Shown one piece after another: positions 9,248-54,842 of a stretch of DNA of 64,000 bases. Each line of letters begins with the position of its first letter. Positions within the stretch are counted from its first letter, which is position 1. The notes under the pieces are model-generated. The model had not been told where the DNA came from. It searched no databases and worked only from the letters and a program-made list of their open reading frames with translations. The stretch is taken from assembly GCA_965652295.1 (NCBI GenBank), contig CBFGTS010000014.1, positions 1 through 64,000 of the forward strand, read 5' to 3'. Source of the DNA: an uncultured Haloferula sp. GTDB taxonomy: Bacteria; Verrucomicrobiota; Verrucomicrobiia; Verrucomicrobiales; Akkermansiaceae. The translations under genes were made by a program, and so were the position numbers.

Positions 9248-9604
9248 GGTTTCTACTCGACGAGAATTTCCCGAGTCGGCGGGCGAATGGCTCAAGCAGC
9301 ACGGCCATTCGGTTTTCGATTTCCGGGGAACCTGTGACGAAGGGATCGATGATGCATCGGTGTTCCGGAAGGCTCAGGAACTGGATGCCGTTCTACAAAC
9401 GACGGATCGTGATTTCTACCACACCGTGCCGCACCTCTTCGCAACCCATGCGGGCGTCGTGGTCGTCGCCCTCAGGCAGCCGAACCGGAAGGCAATCCTC
9501 GAGCGCCTCGAATGGCGCTTGCTCACATCGAACCCGACGCGTTCCACAGTCGCGCCTTCCAGCTCAGGGACTCGAACTGGATGGCCTACCCGCCGCTCGG
9601 CTGA
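9244..9604 (+). pseudogene. DUF5615/PIN-like toxin (VapC45-like) with two -1 frameshifts
   Basis: MRFLLDENFP in one frame, SAGEWLKQHGH...GIDDASVFRKAQELDAVLQTTDRDF...LERLEW in a second, ALAHIEPDAF...YPPLG* in a third; breaks near 9272 and 9515. Confidence 0.8.
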
Positions 9605-11718
9605 GCCTCCGCCGCCTGCATCTCCCGCATCCTCTCCCATTCATCGATCAAGCTGGAATCGACGCCCCTCACGGTCTGCTCCAGCAGCTTCTCCGCCTTG
9701 TCCAACTCGTCGGTTTTCAGACCCGGGGGCATGGTCTGGACGAGGACTTTGTAGACCTCCGAGAGGTACCGTAGCAGCACGCCTTCGCCGCGTTCGAGGC
9801 CGTAGCGTTTCACGTAGTCCTCGAAGCTCTCCCAACGCTCGACCATTTCCCGCGCCACCGACTTCGGACGCACTCCGGCTTCCTTGGCCCACGGATGTTT
9901 GAGGACGAATTCATTGTAGGTGGCGTAGATGAATTCCTTTCCCGGTTTGGGATGCTCGACTTCCATCAGCCGTTCCATCCGCTCCTCATACTCCACCCCC
10001 TCGGCCTTCAACTCGGCGAGCAACTCGCCCTTCGCTTTGTCCACCTGCTTTTTCAAGACCGCGCCGGGGTCCTCCAGAATTGCCTCGATCAGCGACAGCA
10101 CGTTCAAGGGGTAGTCGCCATCCTCCGGGTCGAGCTGAGGCAGGGTATCGAGCAACCACAGCCCGAGCGTCTGGTGCATGGAAAAATCCTCAGGAAGCTG
10201 GTCTTGCAGGACGACCTTCGCCGGGCCGCTGCGTTCTTCTTTCGGCAGGATGCGCAGGACACCGCCACCAACCAGCGCTTTGAACAGCTCGAAGCCGCGA
10301 CGCCGGAGTTCACGCTTCCCGGCGGACGTTTCGTGACAATCGCGGATGATCCGTCGCAAGGCCGCACAGCCGTCCTCGGATTCGCGACCGAGGACGTTGA
10401 GCAGCATGCCGTGGCTGATGCGGAACTGCGATTGCAGCCGTTCCGGCGGCGAATCCTGGAGCTTCTGGTAGGTGCGCTCGTCCCAGTTCACGAAGCCCTT
10501 CTCCGGCGGGCGCTTCTTCATCGCCTTGCTTTTGCCACCCTTCGCCGCCGCCTTTTCCTCGGCCTTCTTGTTCTCAATGACATAGTCCGGTGCCTGCGCG
10601 ACGACATAGCCGATGTCGTCGAACCCCCGTCGGCCGGCCCGGCCGCAGATCTGTTTGAAATCGCGCACCGCCAGGATGCCAGTACTATCTCCGCCGTATT
10701 TGAAAAGCTGGGTGAAAAGCACGGTGCGGATCGGCACGTTGACGCCGACGCCGAGGGTATCGGTGCCGCAGATGACCTTCAGCAAGCCCTCCTGGGCCAG
10801 CCGCTCGACAAGCACCCGGTATTTCGGAAGCAAGCCGGCGTGGTGGATGCCGAGGCCGTGGCGGAGCAGTTTTTTGACCTCCTTGCCGTAAGGGCTTTTG
10901 AAGTCCGCGTCCTCGAGCATTTCCGCGATGCGGCCCTTCTCCTCCTTGGTGCAGAAGTTCCGGCTCATCAGCTTCTGTGCCGTTTCCGCGCAGCTCCGCT
11001 GGGTGAAATGGACGAGATAGATCGGTGCACGGCGGTCATTGACCAGCTCTTCGACGCGCTCCTCCAGCAGCGTGAGGCTGTATTCAAACTCCAGAGGCAC
11101 CGGGCGCTCCTCGGATTTCACCAGAGCGGTGGGCGCGCCGGTCAGCCGGGTAAGCTCCTTTTCGAAAAACGCCGTGTCGCCAAGCGTGGCGGACATCAAC
11201 AGGAACCTCGCCTGCGGCAGGGTGAGCAGCGGAACCTGCCAGGCAACGCCACGCTCCTTGTCCGAGTAGTAGTGGAACTCGTCCATGATCACATCGTCCA
11301 CCGCCGCCTCCGCGCCTTCGCGCAACGCGAGGTTCGAAAGAATTTCCGCGGTGCAGCAGATCACGGGCGCGGACGGATTCACCGTGGCATCGCCGGTGAT
11401 CATGCCGACCTTTTCCGGGCCGAAGCTCTTGCAGAGCGAGAGGAACTTCTCGTTCGCCAGCGCCTTGATCGGAACGGTGTAGTAGGAGCGGCGGCCGAGA
11501 CAGATGGCGCGGAACTGCATCGCCATCGCCACCAGCGATTTCCCCGAGCCGGTGGGCGTGTTGAGGATCACGTTCTTTCCGCCAAAGACTTCGAGGATCG
11601 CCTCCTCCTGGTGCCCGTAGAGTTCGATCCCGGCCTCGATCAGGTAGTTGAAAAACGCCTCCAGCACCGCGTCGTTGTCCGACGGGTTTCCGAGCGTGGA
11701 GGGATCGAGCACAGCCAT
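9586..11718 (-). CDS. Ski2/HelY-like DEAD/DEAH-box helicase (DUF3516-type C-terminus)
   Basis: PTGSGKS (motif I), DEFH (II), MSAT (III), [10 protein letters not shown] (VI). Confidence 0.9.
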
Positions 11719-11957: not shown

Positions 11958-12269
11958 ATGGAATTCCAAAACGTCACCGCCCACGCCAAGGCCAACGTCT
12001 ATTTCGACGGCAAGGTCATCTCGCACACCATCGTGACCGCTTCCGGGGAAAGGAAGACCCTCGGGGTGATCCTGCCCGGCAGCTATCATTTCGGCACCGA
12101 GGCACCGGAACTCATGGAGATCGCCGGCGGCGCGTGCAGCCATGTCATCGATGGCACCGAGGACACCATCGCCACGCAGACGGGCGGTTCCTTCAACGTC
12201 CCGGGCAAGAGCGGCTTCACCATCACGGTCGAGGGCGAGCCCTGCCACTATGTTTGCAGCTTCCTGTGA
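11958..12269 (+). CDS. ppnP: Pyrimidine/purine nucleoside phosphorylase (DUF1255/YaiE)
   Basis: ANVYFDGKVISH...KTLGVILPGSYHFGTEAPELMEI...YVCSF, 103 aa. Confidence 0.9.
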   Translation: MEFQNVTAHAKANVYFDGKVISHTIVTASGERKTLGVILPGSYHFGTEAPELMEIAGGACSHVIDGTEDTIATQTGGSFNVPGKSGFTITVEGEPCHYVCSFL

Positions 12270-12270
12270 A

Positions 12271-12428
12271 AGGAGCGCCGATTATGAAATCGGCATCGTC
12301 GTGCCCTTGGCGGCGATCTCTCCATGGGTGATCCAAGTTGCCGAAACGGCCGTGGGGGAATTCGGGGGCTCCATTCGTGAAGCCAACATCGGAGGGCGAT
12401 TCGTGCCGATTTCATAATCGGCGCTCCT
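12271..12428. repeat. Inverted pair of 25-bp REP-like palindromes (REPIN-like)
   Basis: aggagcgccgattatgaaatcggca at 12271-12295, perfect reverse complement at 12404-12428, third copy at 54843-54866. Confidence 0.85.
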
Positions 12429-12448
12429 TGCTCTTGGCTTCAGGTCAC

Positions 12449-12486
12449 AAAAAAGGCCCTCCGGCGGTTTCCCGCCGAAGGGCCTT
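12449..12486 (-). terminator. Intrinsic terminator (distal terminator of the candidate ncRNA; possibly bidirectional)
   Basis: Minus strand aaggcccttcggcgg-gaaa-ccgccggagggcc followed by U6. Confidence 0.85.
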
Positions 12487-12535
12487 GTTCCGGATCATCC
12501 GATCCACCTCTTCTCCCCGCCCTCTCGGGACAGTG

Positions 12536-13521
12536 AAAAAAAGGAGGGGAGTGGGAACTCGCCACGTTCTCTTTCCCCGGTCGACTGGCATTGGGCGCCC
12601 AAGTCCGCCCGTCGAGCTTCGTTGGCTGCCAGTTCCCCGACGTCGCGTCTGCCTGCGAGGACGAATCGCCTGCCTTTCCGGCTCCGCGACGGAGCCGGCC
12701 GGGATGTCGCCATCCTCGGCTTTTCGGGTGAGACTTCTTCGCCCGGATTTCCGGCATCTGCCGATGCCCGCTGTCCGAACCTCGGGTGGAAAGCCCCGCT
12801 GAGAACGGTGCCCTCCTCCCTTTCCCCCGGGGTCGGCATCGCGGCGCTCTCGCTCGCGACCGTTGGCCCCGGGTGACGGGTCTTGTCTCTTACCCCTCAC
12901 GTTGCCTTTCTTGTTTTCTCAGTCGGACGACCGCGTTTCCGCCGGCCTCCCGCTCTCATCGGACTTTATCGCCCGCTCCGTGGTCATCACCTTTGCGCCG
13001 GTGCCTTCCTTCGGAGGGACTCATTCCGCGATGGTTGGATCTCTTTTTTCTCCACCCGGTTGCGATTCCGGGCGATTTCCGCGGCCTTTCGCTTCGTCCT
13101 TCGGCCGCAGGATCTCCTTCCCACCACACTGGCTCACAGTAGCAACTGTCCGGTCTCTTTCGACCGACTGTGTTCGCATCCGTCCCCCGTCGTTCAACCG
13201 TTGGGGGGCTCCATGCGTGACTCGGCTTTGCGATTGGTTGGGTGGCGCGCGTCCTGGCCGGACGCACCTCCACATCGCTCACCGCCTGACTTCCTTTTCG
13301 TGTTTCACGGAAAGACACGACTCTTTCCGCCGGAAGCCGGTGACATTGGCCTCGGACTTGCCGCGATGAACCACCGCCCAGTTTCCGAGGGGCCGGGAAC
13401 GCCAGTTCGTCCCGACCATTGCTCCGGACTTTCGCCCGGATCTATCCCAAGCGCGCTCGTAACCCAAAGGCTCCTTCCCGCGCTCCATTTCTGTCAAAGA
13501 TCAATGTCCCTTGCGAGACAT
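12536..13521 (-). ncRNA. Candidate large (~1 kb) structured non-coding RNA; family not assigned (MISL is the first candidate to test)
   Basis: No credible ORF in a 1.5-kb intergenic gap; dense hairpins with GNRA loops on the minus strand; upstream promoter-like and boxA-like elements; ends in a hairpin plus U7 at 12536, with a second terminator at 12449-12486. Confidence 0.7.
13491..13521 (-). promoter_or_regulatory. boxB-like hairpin plus boxA-like antitermination element
   Basis: Minus strand atgtctc-gcaa-gggacat directly followed by TGATCTTTGACA (10/12 match to E. coli rrn boxA TGCTCTTTAACA). Confidence 0.55.
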
Positions 13522-13526
13522 CTGCG

Positions 13527-13555
13527 ACTTAAGCAAAGGCCCTTGACAGAGTCAA
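13527..13555 (-). promoter_or_regulatory. Candidate sigma70-type promoter of the ncRNA
   Basis: TTGACT (13555-13550), 17-bp spacer, TGn-TTAAGT (13532-13527); the -10 match is weak. Confidence 0.45.
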
Positions 13556-13622
13556 TGAGATTCTTGCATATCACACTGGGAATAAAAGGGTTGTGAATAT
13601 CCTGTGAGTAACTTTCGGTTGA

Positions 13623-16616
<2,994 letters not shown>

Positions 16617-54518: not shown

Positions 54519-54842
54519 GAAAGTTGCGGTTAGGAGGCTTGCGCGTCGAACTCATCGCAAAAGACGCACGCCGTCAATTCCGCGAAAATTGGCTCTCCGT
54601 CAGATTTGCTGGTGGCTACCGGGCAGATTCCAACCTCCACCCGCGGGCTCAGCGATCGACAAACGGAGCGGCGAAACGCGTTCGCCGGTAGGGCCGAGCG
54701 GCCCGCTCGGCCGACTCGTTTCGGACTCCCGGTCGCGCCCACCCTCCCGACCAGGGGAGGCAGCGTGTTGGGGTGCTAGATCGTGGATGATCGATCGCAG
54801 ATGGCAGATCAAGGATCGCGGACCGAAGGCTAACGGAGCCAC

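Follow-up and report, generated by a model that had tools for sequence, protein, structure and literature searches.

A divergent and enlarged MISL RNA gene of an uncultured Haloferula, with a boxA-like leader motif and DnaA-box-like sites upstream of its promoter

MISL RNA (Rfam family RF03079) is, like OLE, GOLLD, ROOL and HEARO, a large RNA with an ornate covarying structure and many GNRA loops, but it is unrelated to these four in sequence. MISL is reportedly one of the motifs of the 2017 survey by Weinberg et al., where it is said to be found in the supplement. The word MISL is absent from the main text of this survey (PMC5737381). The term MISL RNA was found in the literature only in the versions of Ribonanza, which report mapping of windows of MISL by selective 2'-hydroxyl acylation analysed by primer extension (SHAPE), and our full-text literature searches on MISL found no published study of its function. 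Here, we analysed a stretch of 64,000 nucleotides (hereafter the window, meaning this whole stretch) from contig CBFGTS010000014.1 of an uncultured Haloferula sp., a member of the phylum Verrucomicrobiota. An RNA gene is located in its gap between ppnP (11958-12269, plus strand; Pfam family Ppnp, E 4e-30) and ligA (13776-16616, plus strand). This gene lies on the minus strand and is therefore convergent with ppnP and divergent from ligA. We put at about 0.9 the probability of the explanation as a whole, namely that it is a single-copy minus-strand gene and a divergent, enlarged member of the MISL family.

The complete RF03079 model (positions 1-751 of 751) matches positions 12554-13447 with 255.6 bits (E 2.5e-76). 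The match is confined to the minus strand, in agreement with the orientation proposed by a first-pass annotation made from the letters without database searches. A model search of the whole 4.37-Mb genome found the same match and no second copy. A default Rfam scan of the entire window gives no match, because the score is 19 bits short of the gathering cut-off of the family (274.6 bits), which is an annotation rule and not a biological property. Other large-RNA families of Rfam, OLE, GOLLD, ROOL and HEARO included, give no match at E values up to 10. The score below the cut-off results from insertions and divergence and not from missing elements. All the invariant blocks of MISL are present in the window and aligned with those of other members: GGAUA, AGGC..UCACC, GUUGCUACUG and GAGRG..AAGAG...AGACCCGU, as well as GCGUCGGGRA and GGGAAAGAG..GUGGCGA. 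Among the genus-mates, G002 passes the cut-off with 280.4 bits, and G003, G018 and G021 score 267.6, 251.1 and 239.0 bits, respectively. Members from family f91 score 204-214 bits, and homologues form a series that leads from the window copy up to members scoring 450-624 bits. It is almost certain that the gene is a divergent and enlarged MISL homologue. As in RF03079, we find the invariant blocks and helices of the family in a single-copy, stand-alone gene of Verrucomicrobiota; the window copy differs by seven insertions in its core and by two genus-specific additions, a hairpin at its 5' end and, at its 3' end, a domain of about 60 nt.

The first-pass annotation had hesitated between a MISL relative and a new class of large non-coding RNA, and had held that a strong Rfam match would confirm the RNA at the expense of its novelty. 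The first half of this alternative stands, with a full-length match and a genus homologue reaching 280.4 bits, and the second half falls. A class unrelated to MISL would agree with the empty default scan of the window, with a core about 140 nt longer than the model and with the extra 5' and 3' parts. It is nevertheless refuted by the full-length RF03079 match together with compensatory changes in the MISL helices, and the presence of every invariant block and the graded series of homologues also speak against it, leaving it practically no chance. The strong MISL match confirms the RNA and takes away most of its novelty. We are dealing with a known family and not with a new RNA class; what is new is the divergent copy. 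Nor is the gene a housekeeping RNA in disguise, since RNase P RNA (C14:108880-109279, 194.9 bits), transfer-messenger RNA (tmRNA; C2:50774-51133, 166.2 bits) and a 6S-like RNA (C11, 36.6 bits, below cut-off) are encoded elsewhere in the genome.

A coding role of the region, whether for a protein or for a small conserved peptide, is also extremely improbable. Mechanical open reading frames (ORFs) of 72-237 amino acids are found on both strands, as expected at 62% G+C, but four ORFs of the gap that were searched against Pfam matched none of its families. Across 35 homologues, the longest sense ORF has anything between 58 and 233 amino acids and moves from place to place, and conservation tracks base pairs rather than codons. 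The earlier statement that the gap contains no credible protein is borne out by these data, as is that of a purine-rich minus strand (60.3% purine). Furthermore, the fold z-score is -4.14 for the minus strand versus -2.62 for the plus strand.

The consensus structure was computed with RNAalifold on our own MAFFT alignment of 35 sequences (A2) and is not the SS_cons line of Rfam; a smaller alignment of 17 sequences was also folded with RNAalifold. The 35-sequence consensus contains 206 pairs in 38 helices, and 149 of the 206 pairs show compensatory changes on both sides. Paired cells make up 86.1%, versus 71.4% in shuffles and 38-45% with slid partners, and none of 500 shuffles reached the observed values on any measure. 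The shuffle count overstates significance because the sequences are related, a weakness that the slid-partner control does not share. Alignment mapping places seven genus-specific insertions in the core (minus strand, 13374-13359, 13267-13246, 13205-13198, 13098-13088, 13020-12989, 12675-12666 and 12615-12607). Compensatory changes are thus seen in at least 38 helices of the RNA, which also contains a pseudoknot and long single-stranded blocks that do not vary.

The pseudoknot corresponds to a long-range pair already noticed at first pass. Its 5' arm, CUGAGAA (12922-12916, minus strand), is located in a junction strand and its 3' arm, UUCUCAG (12805-12799, minus strand), in a hairpin loop that is unpaired in the nested consensus line of the RF03079 match. 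This interaction is conserved throughout the family. There are 21 distinct 5' elements in the 35 sequences (for instance, CUGCAA/UUGCAG, CUGUAAA/UUUACAG, CCGAGUG/CACUCGG and AUGCAAG/CUUGUAU), and complementarity is 5.04 with the own loop versus 3.29 with swapped loops, a value reached by none of 2000 permutations. The core ends in a conserved terminal hairpin, GGGG...GAAC-GUGGCGA-GUUC...CCCC (12546-12578, minus strand), within which the Rfam model stops. Its GUGGCGA loop is invariant in the 17-sequence alignment and nearly so in the 35-sequence one, and its stem covaries (AU 24 and CG 8 in one pair, GC 29 and AU 5 in another; helices 37 and 38).

Most of the individual stems proposed by the first-pass annotation survive this analysis. 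Seven of the nine fall on covarying helices of the 17- and 35-sequence alignments (13423-13440, 12826-12873, 12698-12720, 13298-13320, 13151-13166, 12753-12768 and 12678-12698). A GCAA-capped hairpin at 13504-13521 lies outside the computed structures, and two-sided changes keep its pairing in the genus, as read by eye. The stem at 12725-12745 has to be given up, its arms sitting in two other covarying helices. The same is true of a supposed closing helix between 13475-13486 and 12548-12557, of which one arm forms the 5' strand of the P0 hairpin described below and the other belongs to the terminal hairpin (12578-12546). Another candidate closing helix, helix 2 (13451-13444 with 12641-12635), would pair the opening bases of the model with the invariant GUCGGGG block; it shows one covarying pair only (UA 9, UG 9, CG 7, 9 unpaired).

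Upstream of the core, a sigma-70-type promoter is predicted on the minus strand (13527-13555), with a -35 element TTGACT (13555-13550), a 17-nt spacer and a -10 element TTAAGT (13532-13527). It predicts a start at about 13523-13519. The arrangement TTGAC-17 nt-yTAnnT is present in all four genus homologues with enough upstream sequence, so that the promoter-like sequence seen at first pass proves to be kept in the genus. A scan with the strict sigma-70 consensus found no promoter, the -10 element being TTAAGT here. The transcript would begin with the hairpin at 13504-13521 (minus strand; 7 bp, GCAA loop), which is genus-specific, has GCAA, GCAC, UUCG or other loops within the genus (read by eye) and occupies the boxB position ahead of boxA.

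At the other end, a genus-specific 3' domain (12487-12544, minus strand) follows the core: its U-run (12544-12535) pairs with a purine run (12516-12507), and a small hairpin comes next (12505-12490). This domain of about 60 nt adopts an identical fold in nine of nine genus homologues despite sequence change, and is absent from other families. It is followed by an intrinsic terminator found by a terminator scan (12447-12486, minus strand), consisting of a 15-bp stem with 11 G-C pairs, a GAAA loop and then UUUUUU. A terminator hairpin stands at the same relative place in homologues. Two terminators had been proposed at first pass, with the unit ending at 12536. The unit ends instead at 12486-12447, and the first of the two proposed terminators (the U7 run at 12542-12536) is a strand of the genus-specific helix, which RNA contigs cross. 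Between a start at about 13522 and the terminator at 12486-12447, the primary unit measures about 1.04-1.08 kb, versus about 750 nt in typical members.

Runs with near-identical sequence include soil and rhizosphere metatranscriptomes. Contigs from the RNA libraries of four studies jointly cover positions 12486-13518, in line with the earlier proposal of a large non-coding RNA. In run X2, a contig of 1062 nt (mean word depth 35) covers 12486-13510 and has non-genomic letters at both ends that look like Illumina adapters. In run X12 (135 million letters), a contig of mean word depth 209 covers 12499-13518 and has adapter-like letters at its 13518 end. Run X13 covers 12634-13430 (mean word depth 27) and run X10 gives two pieces, 12585-12771 and 12790-13502 (mean word depth 7.4 and 6.3). 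The long contigs of X2 and X12 both pass through the U-run. Adapter orientation was considered as a guide to the strand and discarded, X2 and X12 being in conflict. Over ppnP, ligA and the terminator stem, contigs cover only short pieces at 90-95% likeness, which is not evidence of silence.

Besides the genus-specific hairpin, the 5' leader carries two elements that are found throughout the family and lie outside the Rfam model. The first is a boxA-like motif, GAUCUUUGACAGAA (13489-13502, minus strand). A word G(A/U)UC(U/C/A)UUGA.A is located 38-64 nt upstream of model position 1 in 34 of 35 loci, the core positions of the motif are invariant in 17 of 17 sequences, and it has one occurrence in its own genome. 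The second is the P0 hairpin (13449-13486, minus strand), between the boxA-like motif and the model start. The P0 segment forms at least six base pairs in 34 of 34 homologues, with sequences that are unrelated between families, and each printed fold was read by eye as one stem-loop over nearly the whole segment.

The published boxA consensus of gamma-proteobacteria is GYTCTTTAANA, and the search for targets by the same authors left non-coding RNAs aside, as they point out (PMC5725501). Since the 16S gene is not in the assembly of the genome studied here, the comparison with boxA rests on relatives, including G003 from the same genus. The ribosomal RNA (rrn) leader and the 16S-23S spacer of six out of six related genomes contain a matching word, G(C/T/A)TC(T/A)TT(G/C)A.A, found in the leader 119-220 nt before the 16S gene. 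A tetraloop hairpin (read by eye) directly precedes the rrn boxA in all five leaders with upstream flank. Furthermore, the spelling proper to a lineage is common to both kinds of genes: G003 has GATCTTTCACAG in rrn and GATCTTTGACAG in MISL, and G377 has GCTCATTGAAA in rrn and GTTCATTGAAA in MISL, which share CATTGAAA.

These data agree with the rRNA-like transcription unit suggested at first pass, the leader being a hairpin followed by a word that matches the rrn boxA of related genomes. As in an rRNA operon, the promoter of MISL is followed in turn by a hairpin with a tetraloop, by a G(A/Y)TCTTTGANA word and by a long untranslated RNA that is structured. Unlike such an operon, MISL yields a product that is not rRNA, and no RNase III processing stem was seen at MISL. 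The likeness concerns a predicted manner of working and implies no membership. Judging from its sequence, the motif is rather likely to work as a boxA; given that the rrn operons of related genomes have the same word as their boxA, we infer that it would load Nus factors.

The main rival to a boxA is a DNA operator for a dimeric repressor, located just past the start: several families have the word in the form of a 7-1-7 palindrome (GTTCTTTGAAAGAAC). However, it is non-palindromic in the genus of the window and in family f12, and non-palindromic rrn leaders carry the same word. The word might also be an RNA element with another partner, since RNAalifold can pair either its GUUC with its GAAC (helix 1) or its UUUGAC with the invariant GUCGGG. 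Compensatory changes are absent from helix 1, which does not form in 7-8 of 35 sequences. The long-range helix of UUUGAC (13498-13493) with GUCGGG, obtained with 17 sequences, was rejected: 9 of 34 sequences have an A opposite the invariant G, uncompensated. An operator or such an RNA element is conceivable but rather doubtful.

Three DnaA-box-like 9-mers are located upstream of the promoter (13577-13611, minus strand): TTACTCACA (13611-13603), ATATTCACA (13600-13592) and TTATTCCCA (13585-13577). Each of them matches TTATNCACA at 8 of 9 positions, and two of the three are 11 bp apart. The 4.37 Mb of the genome contain 479 such 9-mer matches. Clusters of at least three boxes per 150 bp occur only twice, the MISL promoter being one of the two places, and direct pairs spaced 10-15 bp at only three places, i.e. 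at MISL, at C2:51496 and upstream of a gene for the small subunit of ribonucleotide reductase (RNR).

At least one box is present within 300 nt upstream of MISL, placed as in the window, in 33 of 35 loci; the other two are a locus with only 82 nt upstream and one with a weak match. An independent set was obtained from 80 loci listed from a pattern scan, of which 5 without MISL were dropped and 11 lacking upstream sequence or the motif were skipped, leaving 64. Among the matches listed, the 180 nt upstream contain one box or more in 61 of these 64 loci and two or more in 55. Again among the matches listed, the 180-nt upstream stretches of the 64 loci contain 161 boxes versus 21 in the 780-nt RNA bodies, an enrichment of about 33-fold. 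The genes next to MISL vary from locus to locus, and the boxes are therefore to be assigned to MISL itself.

In DnaA-regulated promoters such as those of dnaA and nrdAB, two to three TTATNCACA-type 9-mers precede or adjoin the -35 element, often with a spacing of 11 bp (PMC8203912). The MISL promoter has the same arrangement; it would differ in that the regulated product is a large non-coding RNA. Full-text searches of the literature on MISL found no report of DnaA control. From the words and their spacing, we favour, with some reserve, a binding of the MISL boxes by DnaA. Alternatively, these TTATTCACA-like sites may be bound by another factor or be an UP-like promoter feature that needs no regulator. 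This would fit with a dnaA gene that lacks such a cluster in this genome, with an origin that is unmapped in this lineage and with boxes that are A+T-rich sequence upstream of a strong promoter. However, the word matches the DnaA-box consensus TTATCCACA with at most one mismatch (PMC8203912). The 11-bp spacing of the direct repeats, the recurrence of this layout ahead of the RNR gene and the enrichment over the RNA body (among the matches listed) likewise argue against another factor or a regulator-free feature, which we regard as somewhat unlikely.

The two other places of the genome deserve a description of their own. The only other box cluster (locus L039, C2:51320-51640) contains 4-5 boxes in about 330 bp and is located about 190-490 bp upstream of the 5' end of the tmRNA gene; from its sequence, it may be an origin or another DnaA-controlled promoter. 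At locus L038 (C28:6036-6055), two boxes 11 bp apart lie about 160 bp upstream of the RNR small-subunit gene (Pfam E 5e-68). Genes for RNR belong to the classical targets of DnaA (PMC8203912).

The distribution of MISL was estimated from samples, with stricter filters for the large sets. In the genus of the window, blastn found near-full-length matches in 9 of 35 genomes (69-100% identity), a tenth genome having a 23-nt match only, and the model search found matches in 5 of 25 genomes, one of which passes the cut-off. No match was found in 16 genomes of other genera of the same order or in the 17 searched genomes of the sister genus g15. Matches were found in 21 of 151 genomes of the class of the window, in 3 of 151 genomes of another class of the phylum and in 9 of 151 genomes drawn evenly from the phylum. 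All matches among genomes grouped with that of the window lie in its phylum, Verrucomicrobiota.

An exact-pattern scan of species representatives gave at least 119 loci, and 71 of the 80 listed carry titles of Verrucomicrobiota type. Twenty of the 80 were scanned with Rfam: MISL is present in 11 of 11 loci labelled Verrucomicrobiota (323-590 bits) and in 4 of 9 loci labelled otherwise (433-611 bits), the other five being chance pattern matches. These four (L102, L083, L115 and L113) carry a full or near-full MISL under titles of a Dongiaceae metagenome-assembled genome (MAG), a Bifidobacteriaceae MAG, a Saccharimonadales MAG and an 858-nt scaffold of a Stutzerimonas isolate. They probably result from mis-binning or contamination.

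No gene neighbourhood conserved across families was found among the window and 32 other annotated loci. Elsewhere, MISL lies next to genes for BipA, HrpB, Rho, a cysK-like protein, efflux pumps, glycosyltransferases and others; for instance, BipA is downstream in three of five annotated f12 loci. The flanking ORFs that were scanned gave no phage family and a single transposase match (IS200-like, beside G085). A DEAD/DUF3516 helicase gene (9586-11718 of the window, minus strand) lies within about 2 kb of MISL in five of eight annotated genus loci, a recurrence that probably reflects synteny kept through common descent. Regulation of ppnP or ligA by MISL, in cis or as an antisense RNA, is very unlikely. 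It could be supported by the convergent ppnP found both here and in G120, a genome of another class, and by the divergent ligA that shares the box-bearing intergenic region. However, MISL has its own promoter and terminator, its neighbours differ in most of the 32 other annotated loci, and ppnP is adjacent in only 2 of 33 loci (the window and G120), being about 3 kb away in G003.

Other features lie close to the gene. The ligA product (946 amino acids) contains an unusual insertion, a Kinase-PolyVal domain (PF18762, residues 232-390, E 3.7e-13), between two NAD-ligase adenylation stretches. Between the ligA start and the MISL promoter, there is a terminator-like hairpin with a T-run (13715-13738, minus strand). 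A perfect inverted repeat of 26 nt, AAGGAGCGCCGATTATGAAATCGGCA, has its two arms at 12270-12295 and 12404-12429 (108 nt apart), in the interval from the ppnP stop to the MISL terminator, and recurs at 54841. This repeat belongs to a dispersed family resembling repetitive extragenic palindromes (REP) or miniature inverted-repeat transposable elements (MITE), with 44 genome copies at up to 4 mismatches. In one metatranscriptome contig, 34 other letters replace the 106 nt between the arms.

Since the neighbours give no functional clue, we read MISL as a stand-alone, trans-acting and stable structural RNA, which would be either the core of a ribonucleoprotein or an RNA-only machine. It would be made in the same way as rRNA, with a hairpin and a boxA-like motif coming after a sigma-70-type promoter. 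In the growing transcript, this motif would load NusB/NusE and other Nus factors, which would shield the long untranslated RNA from Rho and help its folding, as in rRNA synthesis. Through the DnaA-box-like sites ahead of the promoter, synthesis would be tied to the status of DnaA, as is the case for the dnaA and nrd promoters. MISL might in this way be a growth- or replication-coupled stable RNA of 0.75-1.1 kb, guarded by a boxA-loaded Nus complex and with its promoter set directly by DnaA; we advance this full scheme as a tentative proposal only.

Several points weigh against the reading of the gene and of its leader given here. The score is below the Rfam gathering cut-off (255.6 versus 274.6 bits). 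The contigs can show neither the strand of the RNA nor its true ends and level, and DNA may be present in RNA libraries. One core position of the boxA-like word is variable (U, C or A), and the near-palindromic form of the word in several families could instead denote a DNA operator. The dnaA gene of this genome (C12:93824-94309) has no box cluster, and because of this the DnaA-box word of the lineage is uncalibrated on an origin. In addition, the boxes of the window are also 165-200 bp from the divergent ligA start. Finally, the patchiness of the family (9 of 35 genus genomes, none of 17 in g15) argues against an essential housekeeping role.

For the window, these results remove a false new RNA class and give the gene a name. 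For the family, they indicate that the Rfam cut-off misses a genus-level lineage, four of its five scored members being below it, and that the model does not reach the true 5' end. The boxA-like word, P0, the pseudoknot and the DnaA-box-like sites are handles for an RNA that had no functional lead, and the near-identical contigs in soil and rhizosphere RNA libraries of four studies show where its expression in nature may be sought. If the proposed working is true, the Rfam model would lack the functional 5' end of the family, a DnaA regulon would for the first time include a large structured non-coding RNA, and the function of MISL would be pointed towards the cell cycle or chromosome biology.

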